A stretch of 64,000 bases of DNA from the NCBI RefSeq assembly GCF_050320075.1, contig NZ_CP190018.1; one strand, given 5' to 3'. Positions 7,093-58,562 of the stretch are shown piece by piece. The translations under genes and the position numbers were made by a program. Under the pieces are notes generated by a model, which worked only from the letters and a program-made list of their open reading frames with translations, ran no database searches and was not told where the DNA came from. Position 1 is the stretch's first letter. Each line of letters opens with the position of its first letter. Source of the stretch: Escherichia coli. GTDB taxonomy: Bacteria; Pseudomonadota; Gammaproteobacteria; Enterobacterales; Enterobacteriaceae.

Positions 7093-7100
7093 TTCAGGGA

Positions 7101-7126: not shown

Positions 7127-7142
7127 AGATGAGTCATGATGG

Positions 7143-9476: not shown

Positions 9477-9490
9477 GGTGTTGTTCTCCT

Positions 9491-42458: not shown

Positions 42459-44339
42459 TTAATACTCCGTCACGTTTTCCTGTCGCCACGCCTCGTCATA
42501 TTCCGATTTCGGCATATTGGCGATGTAGCTATATGGCGATCCTGATTCAAGTTGCAGGAACTGGTGCGATTGCTCGTCAAGGAACAACGGGACACCACCT
42601 TCCCAACCTTCGCCGTTACGTTGCTTTTCAAGCATCAAAACAGATGCCGGAGATGCCAGTAGCTGTTCGTCCTTCTCTGACATCCTTTCACCACTCTGAA
42701 CTCTCTGTAACGCTCTCTCGCGAGCCTTGTTACGCCAGATGATGAAAAGGTTGTCTGTCAGGTCTGTTATCGCTCCAGAGCCTTTTACGTCCATTTTCCC
42801 GGTTGGTTTTTCTTCGCTGTCACCTTTTCGCGAGTGAGTAACGAGAATGACGTGGGAGTTTGTTTTGTTTTTGAAATCGCAAATCGAGTCAACAAACGCC
42901 TTCTGCCCGTTATAGTCATCGTCGCCTATGCCACATTTCATCAGGCTGTCGATGATGAATAACTGGATGCCGTATCGGCGGCGAGCGTAGTCGAATATTT
43001 CGATCAGCCTGTCGGCTTTCGCCGTTCCGGTCAGACCAAACACCCAAAGTCTTTCGTCATAAAATTTAAATGCAGAGTCAATTTCCAGCACTGGCGGCAT
43101 CTTGCAGCACGTCGCCTGACGGGTAAGTCGTTTAAGGAGAATGCCTGGCTTCAGCTCAAGTGACGCGATGCACGTCTTCACACCCTGACGCATTGCCTCA
43201 AGTGCCATATGCCCGACAACCTCCGTTTTTCCGTGACCGTTCACACCATTGACCAGCGTCAACTCGGCCTCACGGAACTGGAATTTATCTGCCAGAGATT
43301 CCCACGGTGGATTAAACAGATACTGCTGCTTGCCGTAGAAAGCGTTGATAGTGTCCTGGTAAAACTCTCGCGCGCTGTAGAGTTCTTCAGGATCGAAGTA
43401 GGATGCCGTGCCGATGTACTGCCAGATTTCATCCTCGGTAACACCGTTCATCAGGCATTCGTTGATGTCTTTGTACGGCAGAGTAACAAGACGGCAACGA
43501 TGTTCACCGAGTCGGCTTGCGATTTCCCTTGCGGCTTCACGACCAACATCATCAACGTCCATCGAGATGAATATTTCCTCAAACCTGTCGAGGTTGTGAT
43601 ACTCAAACTCAATCCACTGTTGCTTAGCGCCTTTCCCGCCACCAAACGGCACGGATAACGCCGAGATGCCGTATTGCGCATAGCTCATACAATCAATTTC
43701 GCCTTCGCAAAGTACAACCGCCCTCACGCCAGCGTCCAGAGCCTGCCATCCGAACAGACAAGGTTCGCAATCACCCTCTGCCATAATGACTTTCTTCCCG
43801 TCCGGGCGCTCAGTGCTGATTCGCTTGACCTGCAACAACTCACCATCGCGTTTGTACGGAAGCACCAGTGCATCAAGTTCTCGTTCTCCATTCCACACCT
43901 TGCCGCTGACAACCTCGTAGCGCTTTACGACTTCTGGCGATATGCCACGCGATTGCAGGTACTCAAGATGGGATTCTGTTCTGGTAACGTAGCGGGCGAT
44001 TTTCTTGCGGTCAGGTCTGGAGAATTTCTTCTCACGTTTGGCATCGAAATGGTGATCGTCATCCTTGATTCCGAGAAAGGCTTTCGCTTCCTGCATAGCC
44101 TGATGCAGGTTAATTCCACGACATGCCATCCACAAATCAAGCATGTCACCGCCGTCTCCCTCAGCGAAATCAGCCCATTTTTTCTTGCCGCTAAGGTTGA
44201 CCTTAAGGCTGTTTCCCTTGTCACCGTTGACGTTACCGGCAACCCACTCATGCCCCTCTTTCTTGCCGTTTGGCAACAGGTGCGGAGCCACCCTGTCAAC
44301 CTGCGCCCAAAGCAGGTCGCTAAGTTCACTTGGCGTCAT
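42459..44339 (-). CDS. Replicative primase/helicase (Toprim-like N-region + DnaB/RepA-type ATPase)
   Basis: 626 aa; Walker A 'GVNGHGKT'; occupies the lambda P position after O-like gene. Confidence 0.7.
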   Translation of the reverse strand: MTPSELSDLLWAQVDRVAPHLLPNGKKEGHEWVAGNVNGDKGNSLKVNLSGKKKWADFAEGDGGDMLDLWMACRGINLHQAMQEAKAFLGIKDDDHHFDAKREKKFSRPDRKKIARYVTRTESHLEYLQSRGISPEVVKRYEVVSGKVWNGERELDALVLPYKRDGELLQVKRISTERPDGKKVIMAEGDCEPCLFGWQALDAGVRAVVLCEGEIDCMSYAQYGISALSVPFGGGKGAKQQWIEFEYHNLDRFEEIFISMDVDDVGREAAREIASRLGEHRCRLVTLPYKDINECLMNGVTEDEIWQYIGTASYFDPEELYSAREFYQDTINAFYGKQQYLFNPPWESLADKFQFREAELTLVNGVNGHGKTEVVGHMALEAMRQGVKTCIASLELKPGILLKRLTRQATCCKMPPVLEIDSAFKFYDERLWVFGLTGTAKADRLIEIFDYARRRYGIQLFIIDSLMKCGIGDDDYNGQKAFVDSICDFKNKTNSHVILVTHSRKGDSEEKPTGKMDVKGSGAITDLTDNLFIIWRNKARERALQRVQSGERMSEKDEQLLASPASVLMLEKQRNGEGWEGGVPLFLDEQSHQFLQLESGSPYSYIANMPKSEYDEAWRQENVTEY

Positions 44340-44446
44340 GATTCCCTCAGATTGAGATTTTTAAACCAGAAATCGACAAACGAAATACTTAACCAGCCGT
44401 GGTTATAACCAGCGACCAGTAGCGATTTGATTTTTGATTTCATGGT

Positions 44447-45307
44447 TCACCTGTCGAAAAACACGTAGCCAGTTTTCGATACGGTGATTGCGGATGGTGG
44501 TTTGGATTGTGGTTGAATGGTTTCTGGCTTTTCGTCGTTCCAGCGCTGACCGTTCAGGTAGCTCGATGGTAACAACCTGTCGAATCCGAACTGCTTACCA
44601 TTCCTGCATGCGATGTCTTCTGCCAGCATCGTGGCAAACTCGCTTGCCGTACCCCTTGTAGTTTTACGCCATTCCCTGAACTGTGTTCTGAATGCCGAAG
44701 CCGCGTTTTTCTTCCCGGCTTTCCGCATGCCTGCACACCAGAATATTTCCTCGAATGCCTTGTCGGTTTCTTCGTGACGGTCAGGTGATTTTTCACACTC
44801 CGTCCGAACACTTTCGGACATAGTGTTTTTATTATTTCTTTTTTCTTTTGTAATAGTTTCTTTTGTGTGTCCCTGTTTTGGTGACAGCGCTGTCACCGTT
44901 TTGGTGACACTTTTTGTCACCAATGCAGTGACATTATCACCAGAGTAGTGACACCCTTCGATTTGCCATTCCTCGATGTTCTTGTTAGGCCCGATTTGCT
45001 GGCCTTCGCGAAGGATTACCTTCATCGCGATAAGCTCATTCTTGGCCTTGTTTACCTTCTGTCTTGGCAGCCTGGTAATTTGAGCTAACTGACTATCAGA
45101 GATGCGATCCATCTTTTTACCGTAGCCGTATGTTTTACGGCATATGGCGTGGGCAACCTTGCTCTGATTTTTCGTTAAATCTGCGCCGATAAGCTCTTCA
45201 TACAGGGCATTTGCAAGACGGGTATAACCATCTTCAACTTCTGCCACACGACGCTCCACAGGCCGTTGTGAAGACCTTAAATGTGTTACGGTTGCAAGAT
45301 TACTCAT
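44447..45307 (-). CDS. Replication initiator (lambda O-like N-terminal domain)
   Basis: '[21 protein letters not shown]...[18 protein letters not shown]...GPNKNI' parallels lambda O N-domain; iterons inside gene. Confidence 0.65.
44876..44956. repeat. Origin iterons (GGTGACA/TGTCACC repeats) inside O-like gene with adjacent AT-rich tract
   Basis: 'ggtgacagcgctgtcaccgttttggtgacactttttgtcaccaatgcagtgacattatcacc' preceded by T-rich 44830-44870. Confidence 0.6.
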
Positions 45308-45480
45308 GACCTTTCTCCTTCTGCATCAGCTTCACTTTTTCCAACTCAGCCCGGAATCGACCAGGCTGCTTGAAGCTGGACAGGAAGCGATCACGTAGTA
45401 TGTGTTTGTGAATTTTGTCCTGGTAAGGACTGAGTTGTTTTGTCATAATTACTTCTGTGGATTGATCCAGTCTTTCTACA

Positions 45481-45762
45481 TCAGGCCTCGAAGAATTCGC
45501 CGTTCTTCGGGGCTTTTTCTTTTGTCAGGTAATCGGCAAGCCGCTTAGTCAATTCAGCCATTTCATCGTCTTCGATTCCGTATTCCAGAACAGCAAGCAT
45601 CATGCTTACCTGCGAGAAGAAACCATTCTTCCATCGGCTTACCTGATATTCAGGAACCCCCATTGCTCGAGCGAATGTCTTCTGCCCCATCAGTGCCAGT
45701 TTGTTCAGCAAGGCTGACTCGATGCGAGCCGCTTTCTTGCTTTTAGTTGCAATAGTACCCAT
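45481..45762 (-). CDS. cII: CII-like transcriptional activator
   Basis: '[14 protein letters not shown]...VSRWK...MLAVLEYGI' parallels lambda CII. Confidence 0.7.
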
Positions 45763-45838
45763 AGATAATTTCCTTAATGATTAGATAGAGTTGGCTTCGC
45801 AAAGAAACGCAAAACCATAGAGATTTGTTTCTGGTAAT

Positions 45839-45853
45839 GCCCTTTTTCAGGGC
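45839..45853 (-). promoter_or_regulatory. nutR boxB hairpin
   Basis: Minus-strand 'gccctgaaaaagggc' identical to lambda nutR boxB, between cro and cII. Confidence 0.75.
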
Positions 45854-45878
45854 TGTGATGTGTAAGAGCTAGAATGTC

Positions 45879-46094
45879 TTAAGCGGCTTTGCGTTCCGGC
45901 GGGAACACGTCATCAAGACTGACTTTTGCGCCTAACTTGTTTAGGCACTCAACAAGAGCACGGCATGTTTTAAGGTCTGGGAAGCGACGACCAGATTCCC
46001 AATGTCCGATAGCTCCCTGTGTGCATCCAACTGCCTTAGCAAGTGTTGTTTGAGAGATATTCAGTGACTCTCGATATTTTCGTAGGTTGCTCAT
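45879..46094 (-). CDS. cro: Cro-like HTH repressor
   Basis: 71 aa from internal ATG with SD 'ggaggg'; XRE-type HTH 'ISQTTLAKAVGCTQGAIGHWESG'; divergent from cI. Confidence 0.65.
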   Translation of the reverse strand: MSNLRKYRESLNISQTTLAKAVGCTQGAIGHWESGRRFPDLKTCRALVECLNKLGAKVSLDDVFPPERKAA

Positions 46095-46205
46095 ATGCCC
46101 TCCATAGTAACCATGAAACAATAATACGATATGTACTTTTAGAATGCAAACAAAAAATACATCTTGTGCGTGGATGATTTTAGTACAGAGCGTAATAATA
46201 AGGGT
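46095..46205. promoter_or_regulatory. Divergent immunity control region (oR/pR/pRM equivalent)
   Basis: 110-bp AT-rich spacer between divergent cro and cI starts. Confidence 0.5.
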
Positions 46206-46865
46206 ATGAAAATGAAATGGTATGAACTGGCTAGATCCAGAATGAAAGAGCTCGGCATAACTCAAGAGAAGTTAGCTGAAGAGCTTGGTATGACGCAGGG
46301 TGGAATTGGTCACTGGTTGCGCGGATCTCGTCATCCATCTCTTGACGAGATTGGTGTGGTGTTTAAATACCTTGGTATTGATAACGTCTCATTCAACCAC
46401 GACGGTACATTTTCACCTGTTGGCGAATACTCATCTGCCCCCGTTAAAAAACAATATGAGTACCCTGTTTTTTCTCATGTTCAGGCCGGGATGTTCTCGC
46501 CTGAGCTTAGAACCTTTACCAAAGGTGATGCGGAGAGATGGGTCAGCACAACCAAAAAAGCCAGTGATTGTGCGTTCTGGCTTGAAGTTGAAGGTAATTC
46601 CATGACCGCGCCAACAGGATCCAAGCCAAGCTTTCCTGACGGGATGTTAATTCTCGTTGACCCTGAGCAGGCTGTTGAGCCAGGTGATTTCTGCATAGCC
46701 AGACTTGGTGGTGACGAGTTTACCTTCAAGAAGCTGATCAGGGATAGCGGGCAGGTGTTCCTACAGCCACTAAACCCGCAATATCCAATGATTCCATGCA
46801 ATGATAGCTGTTCCGTAGTAGGGAAAGTTATCGCCAGCCAGTGGCCTGAAGAGACATTTAGTTAA
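46206..46865 (+). CDS. cI: CI-type prophage repressor (HTH + S24 LexA-like autopeptidase)
   Basis: XRE HTH '[23 protein letters not shown]'; C-terminal 'GNSM...FKKL' Ser/Lys dyad context. Confidence 0.8.
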
Positions 46866-46990
46866 CAGCCTCACAACTCTAAAACACACATCAATAACCC
46901 GACCTTAGCGTCGGGTTTTCTTTTTCCAAAATATAAACCCATTAAATACAAAGCGTTATAAAAAACTAATTATATTTAGAACATTTTGTA

Positions 46991-47019
46991 TTGACTCGAT
47001 AAAGTACAAATCGTACTAT
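46991..47019 (+). promoter_or_regulatory. pL-like promoter with overlapping palindromic operator
   Basis: -35 'ttgact', 17-bp spacer with palindrome 'agtacaaatcgtact', -10 'tactat'. Confidence 0.55.
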
Positions 47020-47057
47020 TTAGCCATCAGCAGGACGCACTAACCACCATGAAGGTG

Positions 47058-47089
47058 ATGCTCTTAAAAATTTAGCCCTGAAGAAGGGC
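47058..47089 (+). promoter_or_regulatory. nutL (boxA + boxB)
   Basis: 'gctcttaaaaatttagccctgaagaagggc' matches lambda nutL; boxB 47075-47089. Confidence 0.8.
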
Positions 47090-47199
47090 AGCATTCAAAG
47101 CAGAAAGCTTTGAGTAGCGCGAAATGCAGCTGCAAGACAGCAACCGTGGAGATAAGCATCACGGCGCGTTACTCAAAGCTAACTGACAGGAGAATCCAG

Positions 47200-47526
47200 A
47201 TGAATGCACAAACACGCCGCCGCGAACGTCGCGCAGAGAAACAGGCTCAATGGAAAGCAGCAAATCCCCTGTTGGTTGGGGTAAGCGCAAAACCAGTTAA
47301 CCGCCCAATTCTCTCGCTGAATCGCAAACCGAAATCACGAGTAGAAAGCGCACTGAATCCGATAGACCTTACGGTGCTGGCTGAATACCACGAACAGATT
47401 GAAAGCAACCTGCAACGTATTGAGCGCAAGAATCAGCGCACATGGTACAGCAAGCCACGCAGTGAAATGGGTGTGACTTGTGTTGGTCGCCAGAAAATGA
47501 AATTAGGCAGCAAACCACTTATTTGA
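47200..47526 (+). CDS. N: Antitermination protein N (lambda-type)
   Basis: 'MNAQTRRRERRAEKQAQWKAANPLLVGVSAKPVNRP...' near-identical to lambda N. Confidence 0.9.
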   Translation: MNAQTRRRERRAEKQAQWKAANPLLVGVSAKPVNRPILSLNRKPKSRVESALNPIDLTVLAEYHEQIESNLQRIERKNQRTWYSKPRSEMGVTCVGRQKMKLGSKPLI

Positions 47527-47534
47527 GGTGAGAT

Positions 47535-47786
47535 ATGGAGTTTCATGAAAGTGCGATTTGTGATTTTCGCGCTAACGCAAATTCAGTAAAACCACAGCCA
47601 ATTGCAGTTCTTTTTAAAACAATGGGGGCGTGGGCTGTTTTATGCTTCGCCGCTGACGACACTGACGCAAGAATGGCAATAGGCCAAGAGATGGAGATGG
47701 ACCCGACAAACGATGAATTCATAATTTATGGCGCTCCATCTAATTACTTACTTGATACCTGCAACATTTACAACAAGGCTGCCTGA
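47535..47786 (+). CDS. Hypothetical early-left protein (83 aa)
   Basis: ORF immediately after N. Confidence 0.45.
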   Translation: MEFHESAICDFRANANSVKPQPIAVLFKTMGAWAVLCFAADDTDARMAIGQEMEMDPTNDEFIIYGAPSNYLLDTCNIYNKAA

Positions 47787-48012
47787 TGGTGGCCTTTATT
47801 TTTGGCATAAACAACAGAATAAACACTGCACTGTGTATTCATTCCAACGAGTGAATACACGGAGCAATGTCGCTCGTAACTAAACAGGAGCCGACTTGTT
47901 CTGATTATTGGAAATCTTCTTTGCCCTCCAGTGTGGGGGCTTTTTTATATGCATACCAATAACGCTTCACTCGAGGCGTTTTCGTTATGCAATCAAACAG
48001 AAGGAGCATCCT

Positions 48013-48183
48013 ATGCAACAGTTCGCTATTGCAGGGGCGGCATCGGTTCGCCCTTTCAACCCGATTTTATCGGTACAGCATTCACGAAAAAATATTTTAA
48101 CCGGAGCAGACTTTAAACAACCAAGAATGAAAAGTTTGCTCGAAAAGCTTTGGGATATTTTGAAACAACAAGGCCGTCCATGA
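48013..48183 (+). CDS. cIII: CIII-like protein
   Basis: 56 aa from ATG with SD 'aaggag'; 'MQQFAIAG...SLLEKLWDILKQ' parallels lambda CIII. Confidence 0.6.
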   Translation: MQQFAIAGAASVRPFNPILSVQHSRKNILTGADFKQPRMKSLLEKLWDILKQQGRP

Positions 48184-48338
48184 GTTTTACGGATAACTGG
48201 TCAGACGAAGAATTCATTCGTCAGATGAAAGAATTAATCGGTAACGAAGGAGATATTCATGTCACTTGCAACCACAGTGAAGGAGAGCAAGTTACAGAGA
48301 CGCATGTACACGCAGAAAGCTCTCTGGTATCGCCATAA
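48180..48338 (+). CDS. Small early protein (52 aa; kil position), hypothetical
   Basis: ATGA overlap with cIII stop. Confidence 0.4.
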   Translation: MSFTDNWSDEEFIRQMKELIGNEGDIHVTCNHSEGEQVTETHVHAESSLVSP

Positions 48339-48439
48339 TGGCGACCGCGAAGGAATGCGGGTATGCCTTAATTTGTCCCGAGTCGAAGTATTAAATCAGC
48401 GTTATTTCCTTGGGCCATGTCCATTCTGAGAACAATCAT

Positions 48440-49045
48440 ATGAGCAAAGAATTTTACGCAAGACTGGCAGCTATTCAGGAGAATCTGAACGCGCCAAAGA
48501 ATCAGTACAACTCATTCGGTAAATATAAATACAGAAGCTGCGAAGACATTCTTGAAGGCGTTAAGCCGTTACTGAATGGCCTGTTTTTATCAATCAGCGA
48601 TGAAGTTGTGTTGATTGGTGATCGGTATTATGTGAAAGCCACGGCAACTATTACCGATGGCGAAAACAGTCATACGGCAACCGCACTAGCACGAGAGGAA
48701 GAAAGCAAGAAAGGAATGGATTCTGCACAAGTTACGGGGGCTACAAGCTCTTATGCACGCAAGTATTGCCTCAATGGTTTGTTCGGCATTGATGATGCGA
48801 AAGATGCAGATACCGACGAGCATAAACATCAGCAGAACGCAGCAGCAAAGCAATCAAAACCATCACCTACACCTGAACAGGTTCTAAAAGCATTCACTGA
48901 CGCAGCAATGCAGAAAAACACCGTAGAAGAGCTTAAACAGGCGTTCGCCAAAGCGTGGAAGATGCTCGAAGGGACGCCGGAGCAGCACAAAGCGCAGGAC
49001 GTTTACAACATCAGACGAGGCGAATTAGAAGGGGCAACTGCTTAA
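48440..49045 (+). CDS. Erf-like single-strand annealing recombinase (tentative)
   Basis: 201 aa from internal ATG; position upstream of ssb in recombination module; family recall only. Confidence 0.45.
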   Translation: MSKEFYARLAAIQENLNAPKNQYNSFGKYKYRSCEDILEGVKPLLNGLFLSISDEVVLIGDRYYVKATATITDGENSHTATALAREEESKKGMDSAQVTGATSSYARKYCLNGLFGIDDAKDADTDEHKHQQNAAAKQSKPSPTPEQVLKAFTDAAMQKNTVEELKQAFAKAWKMLEGTPEQHKAQDVYNIRRGELEGATA

Positions 49046-49428
49046 TGGCACATTCGATTACAGTAAGACTAAACAAGCCCGCAAGAGAGTTTCAGGCCGG
49101 GGAAAATATCGGATTCAACATCCGTGCTGGCGTTCAGTATTACGATCGCCAGACAAAAAAGAAAGAATGGACAAACTACAGCGCCGTTGTATTTGCCAAG
49201 CCGGGGGCGCAAGCGGATTACTACCGTAGTGTTCTTGTTGAAGGTGGCATTGTTGAAGTTACCGGAGAAAACATCAGGGTTGATGTTTATCAGGGGCAAA
49301 ATGGTCAATCAATCACTCTTGAATTACTGAATGCAAAGATTGGATTTGCAGCTTCAGGAAACAGCCAACAGCAGCAAAGTAGCAATCATCAAAATAATCC
49401 TGAATACGACGATTCAATTCCCTTCTAA
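49045..49428 (+). CDS. ssb: Phage single-stranded DNA-binding protein
   Basis: 127 aa; C-terminal acidic tip 'DDSIPF' characteristic of SSB. Confidence 0.6.
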   Translation: MAHSITVRLNKPAREFQAGENIGFNIRAGVQYYDRQTKKKEWTNYSAVVFAKPGAQADYYRSVLVEGGIVEVTGENIRVDVYQGQNGQSITLELLNAKIGFAASGNSQQQQSSNHQNNPEYDDSIPF

Positions 49429-49451
49429 ATTAGCAAAATAAGGATTCCATT

Positions 49452-49748
49452 ATGCCAGCGCCTCTGTATGGTGCGGATGACCCGCGCCGCTGTTCCGGCA
49501 ATTCCGTATCGGAGGTGCTGGATAAATTCAGAAAAAACTACGATCGGATAATGTCGCTACCGCAGGAAACGAAAAAGGAAAAGGAATTTCGCCACTGTAT
49601 ATGGCTTGCAGAGAAAGAAGAACGCGAGCTAATTTACCAGACATCAATCCGACCATTCCGCAAAGCCACATATACCCACTTCCCTGAATATATCGACCCG
49701 CGCCTGCGTAATTACCGCTCACGCTATGGCGCTATCAGTAATGACTGA
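49452..49748 (+). CDS. Hypothetical early protein (98 aa)
   Basis: ORF in early-left operon. Confidence 0.45.
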   Translation: MPAPLYGADDPRRCSGNSVSEVLDKFRKNYDRIMSLPQETKKEKEFRHCIWLAEKEERELIYQTSIRPFRKATYTHFPEYIDPRLRNYRSRYGAISND

Positions 49749-50049
49749 GGAATTAACAATGAAAACAATGAAGATAAACATCGACCTCGGAAAATACGTT
49801 ATTACCGGAACCAAACACGATCTGATTCTTAGTGAAAGAGGAATTATCAAAGAAGGCGAGAATGCAGGGAAAGAAACACTAAGCCGTATCGGTTATTACA
49901 GCAAGTTTGAGCATCTGGTTAAAGAATTATGCAACCGTGAAATCCTGTTATCTCAGGCGCAGACGCTACAGGATATTCAGCAACATATCGAGAATTTAGG
50001 TGTGTCACTTAGCATGGCTATTGACCAGTTCGTGGAGAGTAAATCATGA
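49726..50049 (+). CDS. Hypothetical early protein (107 aa)
   Basis: ORF in early-left operon. Confidence 0.45.
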
Positions 50050-50210
50050 GAGGACTTGCATACAATCCCGGCATTCTTCCGGCAGAAATGATTATTCGCC
50101 AACGCGTAAAGCCAATGCCATCGAGAGAGGAATTGCTCAAGAGAAATTCTTTTCCGTCAGTAAATCAAAACAAATATCTGAATGCGATGTGGCGGAGTGG
50201 GAAGAAATGA
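50046..50210 (+). CDS. Hypothetical small protein (54 aa), translationally coupled
   Basis: ATGA overlaps at both ends (50046 and 50207); not in ORF track. Confidence 0.35.
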
Positions 50211-50647
50211 AACAAATGTCACTAATTGAGATGGATGGTTTTCTGAAAGGTAAATGCATCCCAAGTGATTTAAAGGTTAACGAAACAAACGCTGAATATC
50301 TTGTCCGTAAGTTCGGTGAACTTGAATCAAAACTCAACGAGCAGCGTGAGTATTACGAAGGTGTTATCTCGGATGGGAGTAAGCGTATTGCAGAACTGGA
50401 AAGCAACGAAGTCCATGAAGACGGAAATCAGTTTCTTGTTGTTCGCCACCCCGGGAAATCTCCGGTAATCAAGCACTGCACTGGTGACCTGGAAGAGTTT
50501 CTGCGGAAGTTAATCGAACAAGACCCGTTAGTAACTATCGACATCATTACGCATCGCTATTACGGGATTGGCGGTCAATGGGTTCAGGATGCAGTTGAGT
50601 ATCTGCATATGATGTCTGAAGCTGGCATTCGCATCAAAGGAGAGTGA
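50207..50647 (+). CDS. Hypothetical early protein (146 aa)
   Basis: Internal ATG of the 215-aa track ORF, coupled to upstream small ORF. Confidence 0.45.
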
Positions 50648-50648
50648 T

Positions 50649-51728
50649 ATGAGCACTATCACTAAAGAACGTATCGAATTGTTCATTAAATCCCCGCTTG
50701 AAAACGGGCTTACCCGTGGCGAACAAATGGAACTGGCACGAATTGCACTGGCATCACTGGAACGCGAACAGATTCGCCACGAGCATGCCAAATGGTCTGA
50801 CTCCACATTTGGCTGCGTTGGCCCCATTGGTCCACTGAAACACCTCTCAAAAGAGGCACTGGAAGCCGCAGCCGAACCAGACGATCTTAGCGAGTGGGCT
50901 GATATGCAGTTTCTGTTGTGGGATGCACAGCGCCGTGCTGGCATCAGCGATGCTGAAATTACCGCTGCTATGGAAGATAAATTGAAGATCAACATGGAGC
51001 GCCAGTGGCCTGAACCAAAAGATGGTGAGCCTCGCTTGCACATTAAAGAACCCGGCAACTCTCCGGTAATTCCGGATGGTTTATCCACGGTATGCGCTGA
51101 GGCTTATCAGGTTGTAGGAGTTATGGCAGATGCGCTTGGTGTATTCGGTGATGCAGCAGTACAGAAAGTTCTGGATAACCTGTCACAGCAAAAACTTGTT
51201 CACAGAGATGTGCTGCCGTTCTCGCTTCCGGTGACTCCGGATGGTTGGATAAGCTGTAGTGAGCGAATGCCTGTAATTGGCGAGCTAAATTGGAGAACTA
51301 GTTTTCCTTTACTGGTTACGTGTGAGATCGGCGTTATACCTGCTTATTACGGCTTTGTGAGCGTTAATGGTGATAGGCATTATGGCTTTATGGAGAGTCT
51401 TAAATACGGAGACGATAACGGCAACCATCCTCAAACTAATGAATATGGTCTGATTAGCAATGTCACACACTGGATGCCACTACCAGAACGCCGCAGGAGT
51501 CGAACAGTGAATAATGCAGAGTTATTTCAGAAAATTTCGGCTCTCGCGACTGAATGCCACGCTATAGCATCTGAGCTTGATGTTGGCGATGAACGAACCG
51601 AGATGTTCGAAATATACAGTGTGCTGCGCAATCTCTGTCGGCGTGGCTACGCCACTCAAGTAGGGCGAATGACTAACCCACTACTCTCATTCTGTGATGA
51701 GGATGACTCGGATGAGGATGACGAATGA
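50649..51728 (+). CDS. Hypothetical early protein (359 aa), acidic C-terminal tail
   Basis: Large ea-region-type ORF; possible DUF550/DUF551-like prophage domains (unverified recall). Confidence 0.5.
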   Translation: MSTITKERIELFIKSPLENGLTRGEQMELARIALASLEREQIRHEHAKWSDSTFGCVGPIGPLKHLSKEALEAAAEPDDLSEWADMQFLLWDAQRRAGISDAEITAAMEDKLKINMERQWPEPKDGEPRLHIKEPGNSPVIPDGLSTVCAEAYQVVGVMADALGVFGDAAVQKVLDNLSQQKLVHRDVLPFSLPVTPDGWISCSERMPVIGELNWRTSFPLLVTCEIGVIPAYYGFVSVNGDRHYGFMESLKYGDDNGNHPQTNEYGLISNVTHWMPLPERRRSRTVNNAELFQKISALATECHAIASELDVGDERTEMFEIYSVLRNLCRRGYATQVGRMTNPLLSFCDEDDSDEDDE

Positions 51729-52108
51729 TGCATAAATCAGTAGCCGGTGAGTTTCAGAAGGAAGTCGATAATACCACTGATCTATTGGACGATATTTTAA
51801 GCATTCTCGCGCTGCTTGAGGCTGGCGATTGGTCAGAACATTGCACTAAAACAGAGCTAGGCGGTCGGCTTGAAAGAGAGATTACACGACTGATTAGCGA
51901 TGCCCAAAATGATTTGTCACCTGAGCATCTCCCCTGCGATGTAGTTCTTGTGCCAGGGATGAGGATACACGAAGGCGTCAGAACGAAAACATTATTAACC
52001 GCATTACAGAGGAGAGCCGAACTAAGCTCGCGGATAAAGTTGATGCCATCCAAAATATTTGATGTCGTCAAATTTACGCCATCGCAACATACTGAGAGAG
52101 ATAAATGA
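51725..52108 (+). CDS. Hypothetical early protein (127 aa)
   Basis: ATGA-coupled ORF. Confidence 0.45.
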   Translation: MMHKSVAGEFQKEVDNTTDLLDDILSILALLEAGDWSEHCTKTELGGRLEREITRLISDAQNDLSPEHLPCDVVLVPGMRIHEGVRTKTLLTALQRRAELSSRIKLMPSKIFDVVKFTPSQHTERDK

Positions 52109-52731
52109 GCACGGTAGCGAACGATCTCACAGAAGATATTCTCAATGAAATTATTGCTGGTGCAAATACCTCGCTTGAGCAACTTCTTGCGTTAGCACTG
52201 AGAGCCGAACGTCGAGACAGAAATCGTTTTTATGAGCGATTACCAGGGAAGCGACCAGATAGATCGGATGAAGAAGGTTGCGATATAGACTACATGGAGC
52301 CTTCAGAGATTTATCAACTTGGTAAAGATGACGGCTGGAACGCTTATCACGATGCTGTGATGAAGTTGGATGAAAAAGTTAAACCTCTTTCTCGACCGGT
52401 AGATCACGGTTTCCGCGATAACTGCGAATGCTCTAGTTGCCAGACCACGACCCGTATTTGTTCCGAATTGACAGATAAGTCCAGCCTAATCTACGAAGTT
52501 AATGTAGGCGGTAATACATGGGTCGAATGCACAAGAGCTGCATACGTAAGAGCAAAAGACAAGGGTGAATTAACCAGAGTTGTTACCAATCACCCAAATA
52601 ATGAGCTTAAAGATCACCAGATTCGAGAACTGGTGAACGAGTTGAGAGATATTGCGGTTCAGTACCACGGAACGCAGCAATTGCGGGAGAAGATTGCCAG
52701 AGCAGTGAACAACTCAGTCCGTAAAAAATAA
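52105..52731 (+). CDS. Hypothetical early protein (208 aa) with Cys cluster
   Basis: 'CECSSCQ...C...C' cluster; last gene before hairpin. Confidence 0.45.
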   Translation: MSTVANDLTEDILNEIIAGANTSLEQLLALALRAERRDRNRFYERLPGKRPDRSDEEGCDIDYMEPSEIYQLGKDDGWNAYHDAVMKLDEKVKPLSRPVDHGFRDNCECSSCQTTTRICSELTDKSSLIYEVNVGGNTWVECTRAAYVRAKDKGELTRVVTNHPNNELKDHQIRELVNELRDIAVQYHGTQQLREKIARAVNNSVRKK

Positions 52732-52748
52732 GCAATAGTACGATAAAG

Positions 52749-52773
52749 AGGCCCCATGCTCTTGATGGGGCCT
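52749..52773. terminator. Hairpin (candidate bidirectional terminator)
   Basis: Stem aggcccca/tggggcct with 9-nt loop after 208-aa gene. Confidence 0.4.
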
Positions 52774-53170
52774 GTAGCAACTAGCGTTATGGACGCTGGT
52801 TTACGTACTCAATGATCGCTTTGATAATCGCGAACATCGGCGGCACGATTTTGAACAGTAAGTTAACCATAACAGGCCTCACTTAGTTTTATCGCGCCTA
52901 GCTGCAAATACCTTTGGGCTTGCCTTTGCAGTTGCAATATCTGTAGTCGCCAGATACTTACGGCACGATTTCGAGTTAAGGTAAGGTTTTAGAGTCACCA
53001 AAAACCTGGACTTAAATCTTCTTTGAGAACAACGATGTTTAGTAAATGGTCATTATTACCTGGTATGACCACTCAACGTTTCTTGATGAATCCAGTACAT
53101 TCGGTTAATCTTAATTCAGTCGCCAGATACTTATGGCTCAGGAACAGAGCCGCAAACTCTGTTTCCTTTT

Positions 53171-53201
53171 AAAAAGCCCAGCCTAGTCAACTGGGCTTTT
53201 T
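53171..53201. terminator. Bidirectional rho-independent terminator in intergenic region
   Basis: 'aaaaagcccag-cctagtcaa-ctgggcttttt' hairpin with A-run and T-run. Confidence 0.6.
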
Positions 53202-53496
53202 AATGTCTATTTTTAACCCAATGAACCTTCAATACCGTAACATCAGTGTCTTGCGAATTAAGATAGTGTGTATAGGTTATGCATGCAAGTACATAACTCT
53301 GTGGATAACTCAGGAAGGAAAAAGTAGCTCCCGCGCAATTTAGGCCAGACAAGGCTTTCGCAAAAGTCAACAGAGAGAAAAAATTTGTTAAAAATAACGT
53401 TTGTTGGAATTGTATATATTTATGCCTTTCAATAGTTAGCATCTTATTAACATCTTTTTTAAGAGATAGAGTTCAAAAATATATAGCTTCAACATA

Positions 53497-53516
53497 TACT
53501 GTATGTGTATACAGTA
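53497..53516 (+). promoter_or_regulatory. LexA (SOS) box
   Basis: 'tactgtatgtgtatacagta' = CTGT-N8-ACAG palindrome 17 bp upstream of humD-like start. Confidence 0.75.
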
Positions 53517-53532
53517 TTAAGAGGCGAGTATT

Positions 53533-53922
53533 ATGGGCTTCCCTTCTCCTGCGGCGGATTATGCTGAGAGCCGTATTTCTCTTGATCAGCAGATAATTAG
53601 ACATCCTTCAGCGACCTACTTCATGAGGGCAGCTGATAGTCATCATCGTGAGGGAATATTACAGGGTGCATTGCTGGTGGTCGATTCCTCACTTACCCCG
53701 GTTGATGGTTCTCTGCTTGTATGCGCTCTGGATGGGGAATATCGCGTAAAAAGATACCGGAAGTATCCACGTCAGCATCTGGAGGATTTAAGAACCGGTA
53801 AGAAGGAAGCATTGCCAAAGGATGACGATGGATGCACGGGCAGCAATGCCGTGTTTGGTGTGATCACTCACATTATCAACGACGCAAGAAGTGGCGAGTT
53901 TGATGATTGTCCCGTGATGTAG
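53533..53922 (+). CDS. humD: UmuD'-like protein (HumD-type; begins at the UmuD cleavage site)
   Basis: 'MGFPSPAADYAESRISLDQQIIRHPSATYF' aligns with UmuD from Gly25; conserved Ser/Lys positions; LexA box upstream. Confidence 0.65.
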   Translation: MGFPSPAADYAESRISLDQQIIRHPSATYFMRAADSHHREGILQGALLVVDSSLTPVDGSLLVCALDGEYRVKRYRKYPRQHLEDLRTGKKEALPKDDDGCTGSNAVFGVITHIINDARSGEFDDCPVM

Positions 53923-54227
53923 GAGAACTGATTAGGCGGTGCAATGCACCGCCTTTTTATCACACTGCGCGGAATGCGATTTCGCCAGGTATTACTTCAC
54001 CTTGCCAATACATTTGGACAGCAGACTTTCGGCGATGCGTTGCACTTGTTGAGCAGATTCCAGAAATCAGAGATTCATTCGACAAGGTTGCAAAGCGCGT
54101 TCCGGCATTCAAAGGAATCCTCAACGAATGGGATTCCCTCGTTGATCTGTTGAAGTCTGAAATGAAGATACACGGAAACAAAGCACCAGAGACTTACAGA
54201 AGAATTAGCGAGTTACGCAAGGACTAA
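53907..54227 (+). pseudogene. Possible umuC-like (Y-family polymerase) N-terminal remnant
   Basis: Overlaps humD stop as umuC does; weak matches 'CNAPPFY' and 'DFRRCVALV' to UmuC N-terminus; only 106 codons. Confidence 0.3.
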
Positions 54228-54317
54228 CCACAGCCTCATACTCGATGAGGCCTGTTCATTGCTCAATGATATCCAGACCTACCGCAATAATACCAATCCA
54301 ATAAATGGAGATTCCAG

Positions 54318-54665
54318 GTGGAAGAAGAAATCTTCACTCGTGAAGAGGCAGCGTCGTATCTGAAGGTAGACAAAGGCACTATCACGCAGTGGATACGAAG
54401 TGGACGACTTCAGGCCGCAAAGATAAATCCAGATAAACCTAAAAGCCCATATCGCATTTGCAAGTCAGACTGCATTGCGGCGCTTAAGTCTGTGAGACAC
54501 AATAGCGCGGTGAATGCGGTTGATGTGCAGGAGGTTAAAGCATGTCAATCAAACTACGCGGTGGCACGTGGCACTGCGATTTCGTCGCGCCAGATGGATC
54601 AAGAGTTAGACGCTCTCTTGAAACATCGGACAAAAGGCAAGCGCAAGAACTTCACGATCGTCTGA
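54318..54665 (+). CDS. xis: Excisionase (Xis)
   Basis: HTH 'FTREEAASYLKVDKGTITQWIRSGRL' typical of excisionases; upstream of and overlapping int; true 3' end uncertain. Confidence 0.55.
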   Translation: MEEEIFTREEAASYLKVDKGTITQWIRSGRLQAAKINPDKPKSPYRICKSDCIAALKSVRHNSAVNAVDVQEVKACQSNYAVARGTAISSRQMDQELDALLKHRTKGKRKNFTIV

Positions 54666-55702
54666 AAGCAGAAGCGTGGAGAGTAAAAAATCTCGGGGAA
54701 TCACCGAAAAAGCTATTCAAGGAAGCCTGCATACGGTGGCTGCGTGAGAAATCGGATAAGAAGTCCATTGATGATGACAAGAGCATTATATCGTTCTGGA
54801 TGTTGCACTTCAGAGAAGCCATTCTCTCTGACATAACAACAGAAAAAATAATGGAGGCGGTAGATGGGATGGAAAACCGCCGCCATCGCCTGAACTGGGA
54901 GATGAGCCGGGACAGGTGTTTGCGACTTGGCAATCCGGTGCCGGAGTATAAACCAAAGCTTGCAAGCAAAGGAACGAAGACGAGGCATCTGGCAATACTT
55001 CGCGCCATTCTCAATATGGCTGTTGAATGGGGATGGCTTGACAGGGCACCCAAAATATCAACACCACGCGTTAAGAATGGACGCATCAGATGGCTTACAG
55101 AGGAGGAATCGAAGCGCCTGTTTGCAGAAATTGCTCCTCACTTCTTCCCTGTGGTCATGTTTGCAATCACGACAGGCCTTCGCCGTTCCAACGTTACAGA
55201 CCTTGAGTGGTCACAGGTCGATCTGGATAAGAAAATGGCATGGATACACCCTGATGAAACAAAAGCTGGCAATGCGATCGGAGTTCCTCTTAACGAAACC
55301 GCATGCCAGATATTAAGAAAACAGCAGGGGCTCCATAAGAGATGGGTATTTGTCCACACCAAACCTGCCTACCGAAGCGACGGAACAAAAACAGCAGCGG
55401 TAAGGAAGATGAGAACCGACAGCAACAAGGCATGGAAGGGAGCGTTAAAGCGGGCAGGCATTAGTAACTTCCGCTTCCATGATCTGAGGCATACCTGGGC
55501 AAGCTGGCTGGTTCAGTCCGGTGTCTCTCTTCTTGCACTTAAAGAGATGGGAGGATGGGAAACTCTCGAAATGGTTCAAAGATACGCCCACCTTTCAGCC
55601 GGGCATCTCACCGAGCACGCAAGCAAAATCGATGCGATTATAAGTCGCAATGGCACAAATACGGCACAAGAGGAGAACGTGGTGTATTTAAATATGGGGT
55701 AA
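54542..55702 (+). CDS. int: Lambdoid tyrosine integrase
   Basis: 386 aa; catalytic 'HDLRHT' and 'RYAHL' motifs; stop 14 bp from att core. Confidence 0.85.
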   Translation: MSIKLRGGTWHCDFVAPDGSRVRRSLETSDKRQAQELHDRLKAEAWRVKNLGESPKKLFKEACIRWLREKSDKKSIDDDKSIISFWMLHFREAILSDITTEKIMEAVDGMENRRHRLNWEMSRDRCLRLGNPVPEYKPKLASKGTKTRHLAILRAILNMAVEWGWLDRAPKISTPRVKNGRIRWLTEEESKRLFAEIAPHFFPVVMFAITTGLRRSNVTDLEWSQVDLDKKMAWIHPDETKAGNAIGVPLNETACQILRKQQGLHKRWVFVHTKPAYRSDGTKTAAVRKMRTDSNKAWKGALKRAGISNFRFHDLRHTWASWLVQSGVSLLALKEMGGWETLEMVQRYAHLSAGHLTEHASKIDAIISRNGTNTAQEENVVYLNMG

Positions 55703-55715
55703 CTACTTGATTTAA

Positions 55716-55762
55716 ATGGTGCCGATAATAGGAGTCGAACCTACGACCTTCGCATTACGAAT
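55716..55762. repeat. attL core: 47-bp identical to 16849-16895 (within tRNA-Thr 3' half)
   Basis: Exact 47-bp direct repeat. Confidence 0.85.
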
Positions 55763-55792
55763 GCGCTGCTCTACCAACTGAGCTATATCGGC
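55717..55792 (-). tRNA. thrW: tRNA-Thr
   Basis: Reverse complement reads 'GCCGATATAGCTCAGTTGGTAGAGCAGCGCATTCGTAATGCGAAGGTCGTAGGTTCGACTCCTATTATCGGCACCA' with CGT anticodon context. Confidence 0.85.
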
Positions 55793-55906
55793 CCTGAAAG
55801 GACATGTTCACGAACGTGAATCACGGTGGACAAGGTTAAAACTAACCGGGCGATGCGTCAATGGCCTTGTGAATCAAATGGCTACTTTTGCATCACCCGG
55901 TTTTAT

Positions 55907-57160
55907 TTACGCACGAATGGTGTAATCACCAATGCCGATCCACTTGTAAGTGGTCAGTGCTTCCAGCCCCATTGGGCCACGCGCGTGGAGTTTTTGTGTG
56001 CTTACCGCCACTTCCGCACCCAGACCAAACTGGCCGCCATCGGTAAAACGCGTAGAGGCGTTAACGTAAACAGCGGACGAATCCACTTCGTTAACAAAAC
56101 GCTGGGCGTTGCGCATATCGCGGGTCAGGATCGCATCGGAGTGTTGTGTGCCGTGTTCACGAATATGGGCGATGGCATCGTCAAGATCGCTGACGATTTT
56201 AACGTTCAAATCTAATGACAGAAACTCATCGTCATACTCTTCGGCTTTAACAGCCACCACCTTCGCGGGGCCTGCCTGCAACTGCGCCAGCGCAGCTACA
56301 TCTGCGTGTAATGCCACGCTGCTTTCCGCCATTTGCTTGCTTAATGCGGGCAGGAAGCTATCGGCGATGTTTTTATTTACCAGCAACGTTTCTACCGTAT
56401 TACATGTGCTCGGACGCTGAGTTTTTGCGTTGACGATTACTTTCAGGGCTTCAGCGATCTCTGCACTTTCATCAACGTAAATATGGCATACGCCTATACC
56501 GCCTGTGATCACCGGGATTGTCGACTGTTCGCGGCACAGCTTATGCAGGCCAGCGCCTCCACGCGGGATCAGCATGTCGATGTATTTATCCATACGCAGC
56601 ATTTCACTGACCAGCGCACGGTCAGGATTATCAATCGCCTGCACGGCACCCGCCGGTAAGCCGCAGGATTTCAGGGCGTCCTGAATCACCGCTACCGTTG
56701 CAGCGTTAGTGCGACAGGTTTCTTTGCCACCACGCAGGATCACCGCGTTACCGGTTTTCAGGCACAGCGAAGCGACATCAACCGTCACGTTCGGGCGCGC
56801 TTCATAAATCACGCCAATAACCCCCAGCGGTACGCGACGACGCTCAAGACGCAGGCCGCTGTCCAGTACGCCGCCATCGATTACCTGCCCCACCGGATCG
56901 GCGAGATTACACACCTGACGCACATCGTCGGCGATGCCTTTCAGCCGTGCGGGCGTCAGTGCCAGACGGTCAAGCATCGCTTCGCTAAGGCCATTGGCAC
57001 GCGCGTCAGCAACATCCTGGGCGTTAGCGTTGAGGATGATTTCGCTTTGTGCTTCCAGTTCATCGGCGATTTTTTCCAGCACGCGATTTTTTTCGCGGCT
57101 GGAGAGTTGCGCTAATTTATACGAGGCTTGCTTCGCGGCAATGCCCATTTGTTCCAGCAT
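55907..57160 (-). CDS. proA: Gamma-glutamyl phosphate reductase
   Basis: 417 aa, recognised as ProA by sequence. Confidence 0.95.
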
Positions 57161-57171
57161 CAGCCTGCTCC

Positions 57172-58275
57172 TTAACGGGTAATCATGTCATCACGGTGAA
57201 CGGCAACCGGGCCATATTCATATCCCAGTATTGCATCAATTTCTTGCGAGTGGTGTCCGGCAATGCGGCGTAATGCATCGCTGTTGTAACGACTGACGCC
57301 GTGAGCGATATCGCGACCTTCGAGGTTGCAAATGCGGATGACTTCACCACGCGAGAAATTGCCAGTCACGCTTTTAATGCCTTTCGGCAACAGGGAACTG
57401 CCGCGTTCAAGAATGGCGGCAGTTGCCCCTTCATCTACCGTGATTTCACCCGCCGGCGGCGCACCGAAAATCCAGCGTTTACGGTTTTCAAGCGGAGTCG
57501 CCTGGGCATGGAACAGCGTACCGACGGAAATGCCTTCCATCACATCACCAATAACGCCCGGCTTGCTGCCCGCGGCAATAATGGTGTCGATACCCGCACG
57601 GCAAGCCACGTCCGCGGCCTGCAATTTGGTACTCATGCCGCCAGTTCCGAGGCCTGAAACGCTGTCACCGGCAATCGCGCGCAGTGCGTCATCAATGCCG
57701 TAAACATCTTTAATCAGTTCTGCCTGCGGATTGCTGCGCGGGTCAGCGGTATACAAACCTTTTTGATCGGTCAGCAGCAACAGTTTATCGGCACCCGCCA
57801 GAATCGCCGCCAGCGCAGAAAGGTTATCGTTATCGCCGACCTTAATCTCTGCCGTAGCGACAGCATCGTTCTCATTGATTACCGGAACGATATTGTTATC
57901 GAGCAACGCACGCAGGGTGTCGCGGGCGTTCAGGAAGCGTTCACGGTCTTCCATATCAGCACGAGTCAGCAGCATTTGCCCGACGTGAATGCCATAAATC
58001 GAAAACAGCTGTTCCCACAGTTGAATCAGTCGACTCTGCCCTACCGCCGCCAGCAGTTGTTTCGAGGCGATAGTCGCTGGCAGTTCCGGGTAACCCAGGT
58101 GCTCACGTCCGGCGGCGATCGCGCCCGACGTCACAATAACAATCCGATGCCCGGCGGCATGTAACTGCGCGCACTGGCGAACAAGTTCAACGATATGGGC
58201 ACGGTTCAGGCGGCGCGATCCGCCTGTTAGCACACTGGTGCCGAGTTTTACCACCAGCGTCTGGCTGTCACTCAT
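57172..58275 (-). CDS. proB: Glutamate 5-kinase
   Basis: 367 aa from '[19 protein letters not shown]'; proBA operon arrangement. Confidence 0.95.
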
Positions 58276-58562
58276 GATTCTCTGCCATTCAATTTTAGGA
58301 AAAATGATATCAAACGAACGTTTTAGCAGGACTGTCGTCGGTTGCCAACCATCTGCGAGCAAAGCATGGCGTTTTGTTGCGCGGGATCAGCAAGCGTAGC
58401 GGCAGTTGTTTACGCTTTTATTACAGATTTAATAAATTACCACATTTTAAGAATATTATTAATCTGTAATATATCTTTAACAATCTCAGGTTAAAAACTT
58501 TCCTGTTTTCAACGGGACTCTCCCGCTGAATATTCGCGCGTTAATTAAAATCAGGAATGAAA

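Follow-up and report, generated by a model that had tools for sequence, protein, structure and literature searches.

The abc2–ea accessory region in the predicted early-left operon of an Escherichia coli P22-like prophage appears to be a mosaic of exchanged modules

A block of seven closely packed open reading frames (ORFs), referred to here as ORF1 to ORF7, occupies positions 49452–52731 of the 64,000-nucleotide (nt) stretch of Escherichia coli DNA which we analysed (contig NZ_CP190018.1 of assembly GCF_050320075.1, hereafter the window). This block is a standard abc2 plus ea accessory region which is already annotated in RefSeq, and it very probably forms the promoter-distal, delayed-early part of the early-left (PL) operon of a P22-like prophage. 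Its make-up is best explained as a mosaic of separately exchanged modules rather than as a co-evolved machine, and the pattern appears to be the familiar exchange of lambdoid modules at conserved boundary sequences, which in this case are found within genes (the coordinates of all features are collected in Table 1).

All seven ORFs are on the plus strand and have the coordinates and lengths given in the first-pass annotation of this DNA. The two ORFs it had noted as missing from the list of predicted ORFs are indeed absent, with 50207–50647 sitting within a listed GTG-started ORF of 215 amino acids (aa) and 50046–50210 falling under the default 60-aa limit. Every ORF has a family match in Pfam and/or PHROGs (E-values of 1e-26 to 1e-148), and in all of the ORFs compared with a relative (ORF1 and ORF3–7) the substitutions are biased towards the third codon position (at positions 1/2/3 these are 7/3/16, 12/2/23 and 15/13/50 for ORF1, ORF3 and ORF5 against P22, 4/2/9 for ORF4 against lambda, and 4/4/10 and 7/1/9 for ORF6 and ORF7 against PhiR41_1). 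Because of these matches and this bias we regard the seven ORFs as real, conserved genes and not as chance ORFs, and this includes the short coupled ones, which the first-pass annotation had allowed might turn out to be non-conserved. Two long antisense ORFs on the minus strand (50528–51088 and 51754–52182) have no PHROG or other family match and were taken as spurious.

The tight coupling earlier described for the whole block is found at most of the junctions, with ATGA overlaps at ORF2/3, ORF3/4, ORF5/6 and ORF6/7 and a 1-nt gap at ORF4/5, but it does not extend to the ORF1/ORF2 junction, where the start at 49726 gives a 23-nt overlap without a Shine-Dalgarno (SD) sequence. We rejected this start, which gives a 107-aa ORF2, as over-extended because of the missing SD, the overlap with ORF1, and the later starts of its relatives. 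The ATG at 49759 has AGGA 7 nt upstream, leaves a 10-nt gap from ORF1 and gives a 96-aa protein, while the ATG at 49768 chosen by the Prokaryotic Genome Annotation Pipeline (PGAP) gives one of 93 aa and is where the PHROG profile and most relatives start (the N-termini of relatives align to residues 4–7 of the 96-aa form). The true start of ORF2 is likely to be one of these two.

The genomic setting of the block is that of a lambdoid prophage. To the left of a tRNA-Thr(CGT) gene (55717–55792, minus strand), which is directly ahead of proA (55907–57160, minus strand), are a gene for a 386-aa tyrosine integrase (54542–55702), then an xis-like helix-turn-helix gene, and then the seven ORFs. Positions 43452–58731 are identical in another strain, whose RefSeq annotation we used for the flanking genes, and further left this annotation lists the tailspike, ejection proteins, gp10/gp4 and P22-type capsid, portal and terminase, as well as nin genes and a lambda-like immunity region. 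Given the presence of int, xis, the immunity region, a full P22-type set of virion genes and the thrW/proA flank, we identify the element as a P22-like prophage (Lederbergvirus-type) which is complete, measures ~38.7 kb and has thrW (tRNA-Thr), beside proA, as its integration site.

Within this prophage, a predicted PL-like promoter is located downstream of a LexA-family repressor gene and is followed by a nutL-like hairpin with the sequence GCCCTGAAGAAGGGC, which we take to be the lambda nutL boxB sequence, with the boxA-like sequence TGCTCTTAA ahead of it. The plus-strand order is then PL, nutL, N, erf, ssb, the seven ORFs, xis and int, with several terminator-like hairpins between N and erf, and the block shares its strand with the repressor gene and N. 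This P22-like gene order and context bear out the earlier placement of the block in the early-left, 'ea-like' arm of a lambdoid prophage. The block had also been said to lie upstream of the recombination genes; it is in fact downstream of them, as erf and the SSB-like gene are 5' of it on the same strand, and it is upstream of xis and int. An Rfam search of positions 46000–56000 returned the tRNA as its sole match.

Table 1. Coordinates of the seven ORFs and of associated features in the window.
Feature	Position	Strand	Evidence and remarks
PL-like promoter, TTGACT-17-TACTAT	46991–47019	+	Predicted; consensus scan, sequence, RefSeq annotation of identical region
nutL boxB hairpin	47075–47089	+	Sequence
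N gene	47200–47526	+	Annotated 'antitermination protein N'
erf, at the head of the Rec module; single-strand annealing protein	48440–49045	+	Pfam ERF 2.5e-44; 76% identical to P22 Erf
SSB-like protein, OB-fold, C-terminal DDSIPF tail	49045–49428	+	PHROG 44 'single strand DNA binding protein' 1.9e-28; weak TIGR00621 match; translation
ORF1, abc2 (anti-RecBCD protein 2), 98 aa	49452–49748	+	PF11043, PDB 8B1T, P22 Abc2 identity
ORF2, DUF5405 protein, 96 aa (93 aa if started at 49768)	49759–50049	+	PF17399, phrog_154, SD analysis, relatives, AlphaFold2 model
ORF3, DUF2737 protein, 54 aa, P22 orf56 homologue	50046–50210	+	PF10930 2.6e-31; 75% identical at P22 orf56 position
ORF4, Ea22 variant, 146 aa	50207–50647	+	BLASTP against lambda Ea22, PDB 8DSX, N7 ORF27
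ORF5, EaA-like multi-module protein, 359 aa	50649–51728	+	PF04447, PF04448, PHROG pieces, P22 EaA
ORF5 leader	50649–50774	+	PHROG pieces
ORF5 DUF550 domain	50772–51059	+	PF04447 9.8e-42
ORF5 linker GNSPVIPDG	51054–51079	+	
ORF5 insert (147 nt)	51080–51226	+	
ORF5 DUF551 domain	51243–51488	+	PF04448 2.2e-9
ORF5 phrog_4220 module, in frame	from GTG 51507	+	AGGAG SD ahead; separate coding sequence in a relative
ORF6, two-module protein, 127 aa	51725–52108	+	phrog_19524 2.7e-88, full length
ORF7, modular protein, 208 aa	52105–52731	+	phrog_21749 6.7e-148, full length; conserved motif KDHQIRELVNELRDIAVQYHGTQQLREKIAR (aa 169–199)
Phage-plasmid segment, 2785 nt	51239–54023		blastn; 98.6% identical to pAVS0223-B (108.5 kb)
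9-bp GC-rich hairpin directly after ORF7	52749–52773		Scan, sequence
S24 peptidase, stand-alone, 129 aa, HumD/UmuD-like in other records	53533–53922	+	Promoter-like site 53472–53500; strong terminator 53934–53954
apbC 3' end, last 19 codons (QMYWQGEVIPGEIAFRAV and stop)	53960–54017	-	With terminator (53934–54017), between humD and xis

The block had been described as seven unknown genes to which no function could be assigned, and this does not hold for ORF1, ORF4 and ORF5, which match named and partly characterised proteins of P22 and lambda. ORF1 can be identified as Abc2. It matches PF11043 with an E-value of 2.3e-60 (residues 1–98 against profile positions 1–97), shares 91% identity with P22 Abc2, and aligns to the cryo-EM chain PDB 8B1T (4.7e-55) with Pro68 retained (...SIRPFRK...) and few substitutions in aa 1–66, leaving the RecC-contacting helical region (aa 3–66) conserved. 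Abc2 is thought to pass the products of RecBCD to the phage recombinase, and its Pro68 occupies the active site of the co-purifying host protein PpiB (PMC9836394). The first-pass annotation had expected anti-RecBCD functions to be found in this arm, and ORF1 appears to provide one.

No exo-like gene is present in the annotated early-left operon, and erf and ssb are found directly upstream of ORF1. The SSB-like gene sits where P22 has abc1, between erf and abc2, and the DDSIPF acidic tail of its product resembles the tail of E. coli SSB. Because it holds the abc1 position, the Rec module would be of the Erf–SSB–Abc2 and not the Erf–Abc1–Abc2 type. Erf, SSB and Abc2 are a recognised combination amongst lambdoid 'Rec modules' (PMC12315714), and for this reason ORF1 probably belongs functionally with the two genes upstream of it. 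Chi sites are not enriched in the window (three compared with the ~2 expected).

ORF4 appears to be an Ea22 variant in which an N7-type N-terminus has been joined to the end of a lambda-type coiled coil and the C-terminal domain. Residues 41–146 are 93% identical to residues 77–182 of lambda Ea22 (106 aa, BLASTP), residues 66–146 match the mixed alpha-beta dimer of the Ea22 C-terminal domain (PDB 8DSX, E = 3.7e-48), and residues 1–43 are 95% identical to ORF27 of phage N7. The match to the Pfam family Ead_Ea22 (PF13935) covers profile positions 113–139 only and at 22 bits is below the cutoff of 27. ORF4 is 36 aa shorter than lambda Ea22, with ~25 residues of the shared coiled coil left. Ea22, an early protein encoded in the lambda exo–xis region, forms tetramers and biases lambda and Stx phages to lysogeny, its variants are mosaic in a like manner, and DUF551, a domain found in ORF5, has been termed a portable domain (PMC10834534).

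ORF5 is a multi-module protein in which aa 1–280 are 45% identical to P22 EaA. Residues 42–137 match PF04447 ('dATP/dGTP pyrophosphohydrolase') with 141.6 bits (cutoff 23; profile positions 1–96 of 97), and residues 199–280 match PF04448 (DUF551) with 38.5 bits (cutoff 22). The ORF5 residues E69, E72, E82 and D85 fall on E35, E38, E50 and D53 of S-2L MazZ in a phmmer comparison (7ODY; the pairwise alignment is weak, E = 0.88), and these MazZ residues are given as Mn2+ ligands in the literature. DUF550 proteins of Z-genome phages are described, in a statement cited in PMC12884076, as converting dATP/dGTP into dNMP and pyrophosphate (PPi), and the all-alpha MazZ/DUF550 domain of ORF5 is likewise predicted to turn dATP/dGTP into dAMP/dGMP and PPi. 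As neither purZ nor datZ is present in the annotated prophage (RefSeq annotation of the identical region), the role of this domain is probably something other than Z-DNA synthesis. PGAP divides ORF5 in two, a 'partial' piece of 42 codons and a coding sequence of 300 aa with an ATT start at 50826, while the frame is open from the ATG at 50649. A GTG (51507) preceded by an AGGAG SD opens the last 73 codons, which are found as a separate 73-aa coding sequence on a phage-plasmid relative, and ORF5 may be more than one unit.

ORF2 (DUF5405) and ORF3 (DUF2737) are small phage proteins with a wide conservation. ORF2 matches PF17399 (1.9e-5, 25.5 bits, cutoff 21.6) and phrog_154 (5e-33, in an alignment beginning at residue 12 of the 107-aa form), and it has relatives in 139 cluster representatives, with PF17399 matched by 68 of 99 relatives. 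The phrog_154 label 'replication initiation protein' (phiKT) is a putative annotation. An AlphaFold2 (AF2) model of ORF2 made from a 99-sequence alignment has a mean confidence (pLDDT) of 91 and consists of four strands followed by two helices (beta4-alpha2). This predicted fold superposes on DUF5405 proteins in BFVD with template-modelling (TM) scores of 0.76–0.86, and the model resembles only uncharacterised phage proteins of that database, with no informative neighbour in the PDB. A PDB sequence search with ORF2 found nothing, and we did not rely on a marginal match to PcfF (E = 0.0035) from a search of the PDB with an ORF2-family profile. ORF3 scores 107.7 bits against PF10930 (positions 1–52 of 53) and follows abc2 and the DUF5405 gene, an order also seen in Sf6 and HK446, and orf56 of P22 comes after abc2 as well.

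ORF6 and ORF7 have full-length homologues mostly in Escherichia/Shigella-type sequences, and single halves of either recur in other proteins, in some cases fused to each other or to DUF551. A PDB sequence search with ORF6 gave no match. ORF7 contains a helix motif of ~35 aa (KDHQIRELVNELRDIAV.YHGTQQLRE.IAR) which is near-invariant across 40 otherwise different proteins, and an AF2 model based on a 40-sequence alignment (pLDDT 55, predicted TM score 0.30) is confident only at aa ~125–160. The ORF6–ORF7 pair is found at a coverage of at least 80% in 77 PLSDB plasmids, mostly non-mobilizable and of 109–115 kb among the matches listed, and the two ORFs are 99% identical to the phage-plasmid copies, in which both are intact.

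These two genes are part of a longer segment shared with phage-plasmid pAVS0223-B and similar as well to the circular phage PhiR41_1, CMS-2020a and Cyrano. It comprises the end of ORF5 (its DUF551 part and tail), ORF6, ORF7, an 800-nt spacer, humD, and the terminator and last 19 codons of apbC. On the phage-plasmids apbC is complete and is followed by metG, and identity to the prophage ends exactly 19 codons inside apbC. This indicates that the segment moved from a ~108-kb phage-plasmid lineage into the P22-like prophage, with the direction suggested by apbC being truncated in the prophage and intact on the plasmids. The left joint, within DUF551, would be homologous and the right joint illegitimate. 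The gene at 53907–54227, which corresponds to the C-terminal two thirds of phrog_1229 ('missing N-terminus' in PGAP), is truncated and starts at the end of the imported segment, and it therefore seems to mark the right-hand recombination joint.

The S24 peptidase carried by this segment is 100% identical to the pAVS0223-B copy. It begins with GFPSPAADY, which presumably corresponds to the cleavage-site position of UmuD, so that the protein would resemble UmuD'. Since it starts at this position, the 129-aa peptidase is probably a pre-processed, UmuD'-like protein of the HumD type (HumD of phage P1 is a UmuD' analogue). No umuC is annotated within the 15 kb flanking humD (RefSeq annotation), and the gene looks like an autonomous moron. 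An 80-aa hydrophobic-rich ORF (53200–53442, minus strand) which is not annotated by PGAP is found in the 800-nt spacer and matches phrog_28987 at full length (E = 1e-55). The hairpin directly after ORF7 probably terminates this convergent gene, as it has a T-run on the minus strand only.

The mosaic nature of the block is seen when it is compared with other genomes. The whole 3280-nt block is found with 100% identity in 3 of 5426 complete E. coli genomes and parts of it in 3207, and coverage by any of the listed phage records does not exceed 47%. Similarity to phage N7 is limited to 49449–49762, 50045–50334, 50622–51081 and 51227–51499, similarity to lambda starts from ~50325 and that to the phage-plasmids from 51239, and the blocks of similarity to N7, P22, lambda and the phage-plasmids begin or end within ORF4 and ORF5. 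These breakpoints coincide with the Ea22 coiled coil and with two linker copies, GNSPVIPDG (51054–51079) and VTPDGW (~51233), which flank the 147-nt insert of ORF5; in P22 eaA the equivalent position has just one linker. In addition, the last 26 nt of ORF4, together with the SD and start of ORF5, are 100% identical in N7 and PhiR41_1, where the upstream sequence is different. The DNA encoding GNSPVIPDG holds the inverted repeat TCCGG-TAATT-CCGGA (the linker DNA regions are 51057–51079 and 51230–51250), and this motif occurs once in the window. At 5 bp the palindrome is too short for us to argue for a function at the DNA level.

No promoter-like site and no convincing plus-strand terminator were found inside the block in a consensus scan, which suggests that the seven genes are co-transcribed from PL under N antitermination. 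Transcription would then run rightward on the plus strand from PL through nutL, N, erf, ssb and the seven genes toward xis and int, and expression of the block would be confined to the time after infection or induction. Since the genes almost abut, their translation may be coupled by termination and reinitiation, most clearly at ORF7, which has no recognisable SD and is for this reason probably dependent on ORF6 for its translation. Of the products, Abc2 would act with Erf and SSB on RecBCD, Ea22 (ORF4) on the lysis–lysogeny balance, and the DUF550 enzyme (ORF5) on purine deoxynucleoside triphosphates (dNTPs), while ORF2, ORF3, ORF6 and ORF7 would most plausibly act on host targets during lytic development.

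A number of points weigh against this account. Our promoter and terminator scans were simple consensus scans. Four of the seven genes (ORF2, ORF3, ORF6 and ORF7) are uncharacterised. The MazZ alignment which places the catalytic residues of ORF5 is weak, though the Pfam match is strong, and the splitting of ORF5 by PGAP raises the possibility that it is a recent read-through fusion and not a functional 359-aa protein. Finally, because the N-terminal and coiled-coil part of ORF4 is shorter than that of lambda Ea22, its oligomeric state and activity may differ from those of the lambda protein.

Other explanations of the block can be considered alongside the delayed-early accessory region we favour. 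It is possible, though we hold this only tentatively, that the block is an anti-defence island in which at least one of ORF2, ORF3, ORF6 and ORF7 is a true counter-defence factor, and this overlaps with our preferred explanation. In its full form, each of the uncharacterised genes, possibly along with the DUF550 enzyme, would counter a host immune system (for example a restriction, nucleotide-depletion or signalling defence), and the mosaic would be the outcome of an arms race. These genes are neighbours of an established anti-RecBCD gene, further counter-defence genes are enriched in accessory regions where some are already known (Silas et al. preprint), modules are rapidly exchanged between phages and phage-plasmids, and a dNTP pyrophosphohydrolase could shift nucleotide pools. 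However, none of the seven ORFs has a match to known anti-restriction, exclusion or defence families besides Abc2 (Ral, ArdA, Ocr, SieA/B and PADLOC systems; Pfam, PHROGs, NCBIfam and PADLOC), with PADLOC giving a single, chance-level line (PtuA, E = 0.024) and NCBIfam nothing, and the anti-restriction and superinfection-exclusion functions suggested earlier for this arm are thus not borne out. Furthermore, the predicted DUF5405 fold is without an informative structural neighbour, and lambda Ea22 has been tied to the choice between lysis and lysogeny and not to counter-defence. A search for literature on the RefSeq accessions of the proteins found no paper.

A more speculative proposal, which we think rather unlikely, is that proteins of the Ea22/EaA/DUF551 type (ORF4, ORF5, ORF6, ORF7 and their many relatives) make up a combinatorial domain-shuffling system common to lambdoid prophages and phage-plasmids, with conserved coding joints acting as sites of homologous recombination at which effector domains are swapped, and with at least one module (ORF2, ORF3, ORF6, ORF7 or the DUF550 enzyme) being an unrecognised host-takeover or counter-defence effector. 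The joints may be the MSTITKE...ARIALASLE leader, the GNSPVIPDGW linker with its partly palindromic DNA, the helix beginning KDHQIRELVNELRD..., and the stop/start junctions with their SD sequences, and the mosaic breakpoints coincide with these.

The distal part of the block (the ORF5 tail, ORF6 and ORF7) might instead be hitch-hiking or decaying cargo of a recent illegitimate import and be functionless here. Its arrival with a truncated apbC 3' end at what would be a non-selective joint, the resemblance of ORF5 to a read-through fusion flagged as a partial gene by PGAP, and the truncation of the gene at 53907–54227 would all fit with this, but we consider it improbable given that ORF6 and ORF7 are intact and so close to the phage-plasmid copies, that the pair is intact in the 77 plasmids, and that divergence from PhiR41_1 is biased to third positions.

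A further reading, suggested by the first-pass annotation, is superinfection exclusion or some other prophage defence, in which the lysogen expresses the block and is shielded by it from other phages. In its favour, sieB/esc and gene 17 are indeed located in the early-left arm in P22-like phages. We regard this as very improbable here. PADLOC gave no match at a meaningful E-value, the P22 sie genes are elsewhere in the genome, and PL, nutL and several terminators all precede the block, which has no promoter-like site of its own, so that the lysogen expression which exclusion needs is not indicated. Similarly, the genes highlighted as highly expressed in Kapi1 lysogens are the cI–cro–cII module, a Tad2-like gene, scaffold and capsid only and include no ea-region genes (PMC12922286). 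Scarcely credible, finally, is a single co-evolved seven-gene operon for one multi-protein machine whose stoichiometry is set by coupling, as despite the four ATGA overlaps and a coding density of 99.7% it is largely refuted by the separate distribution of the parts, with only ORF1, ORF3 and ORF5 in P22, only ORF1, ORF3, part of ORF4 and ORF5 in N7, and ORF6–ORF7 mainly on phage-plasmids, and overlaps of this sort are normal throughout the P22 ea region.

Elsewhere in the window, positions 17886–20929 (minus strand) hold the prophage tailspike gene ('head-binding domain' protein) and then, at the end of the prophage, an acyltransferase-family gene, which may be a lysogenic-conversion gene modifying the O-antigen. 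A 10.2-kb P4-like satellite prophage at 6668–16848 is missing from strain SB0258h1, which is identical otherwise, and is flanked by an 18-bp direct repeat (6650–6667 and 16849–16866). It has genes for an alpha primase-helicase, an epsilon-type derepression protein, Ogr/Delta, Psu and an integrase, and its psu–int hotspot contains an AT-rich 464-aa ORF (14123–15517, minus strand) which has no Pfam or PADLOC match and could be a defence gene of a kind not described before. Positions 257–6637 appear to be what is left of an older P4-like element and its defence cargo, including an AbiEii/AbiEi pair (257–1946, minus strand), an ash gene, an integrase fragment, and a defence reverse transcriptase (RT_UG5-nitrilase type, 1069 aa; 2262–5471, plus strand; PADLOC E = 0).

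Returning to the accessory region of the P22-like prophage, the block offers a clear example of how exchange at conserved intragenic linkers builds such a region, and of a P22-like prophage which appears to have taken a 2.8-kb accessory segment (humD and a scrap of a host gene) from a phage-plasmid lineage. ORF2, ORF3, ORF6 and ORF7 are reasonable, low-priority candidates for accessory-gene screens.

The closest well-known counterpart of the block is the P22 region erf–abc1–abc2–orf56–eaE–orf45–eaF–eaD–eaI–eaA–eaG–eaC–xis–int, which has the same operon position, orientation and style of overlapping genes, and shares with it Abc2 (91% identity), orf56/ORF3 (75%), EaA/ORF5 (45%, with DUF550 and DUF551) and, upstream, Erf (76%). 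In contrast to P22, abc1 is replaced here by the SSB-like gene and there are no homologues of eaE, eaF, eaD, eaI, eaG or eaC, while P22 lacks ORF2, a lambda-type Ea22 (ORF4), ORF6 and ORF7 and has homologues of ORF1, ORF3 and ORF5 only. N7 has homologues of ORF1, ORF3, part of ORF4, and ORF5. The abc2–DUF5405–DUF2737 order is the same in HK620 (hkaE–hkaJ), Sf6 (gp23–25), HK446, N7 and Kapi1, with 96–98% DNA identity, and in these P22-like phages the Ea22-like N-terminus and the DUF550/DUF551 gene are 95–97% identical in a piecewise manner, but none of them carries ORF6–ORF7. Lambda has its Ea22 at the same site between the recombination genes and xis and has the coiled-coil end and whole C-terminal domain in common with ORF4, but the lambda protein is 182 aa in length compared with 146 for ORF4, which begins with ~40 residues of the N7/HK620 type and lacks most of the lambda coiled coil. 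The MazZ/DUF550 proteins of S-2L (7ODY), phiVC8 and SH-Ab 15497 resemble ORF5 in the PF04447 match and the aligned acidic metal ligands, whereas the ORF5 domain, with its predicted activity, is fused to a leader, DUF551 and an extra module and is without Z-genome partners. Finally, the phage-plasmids PhiR41_1, CMS-2020a, Cyrano and pAVS0223-B have ORF6, ORF7 and humD in the same order, but there the cluster is found beside complete apbC and metG genes on a circular element, whereas here it has apparently been spliced into a P22-like PL operon.

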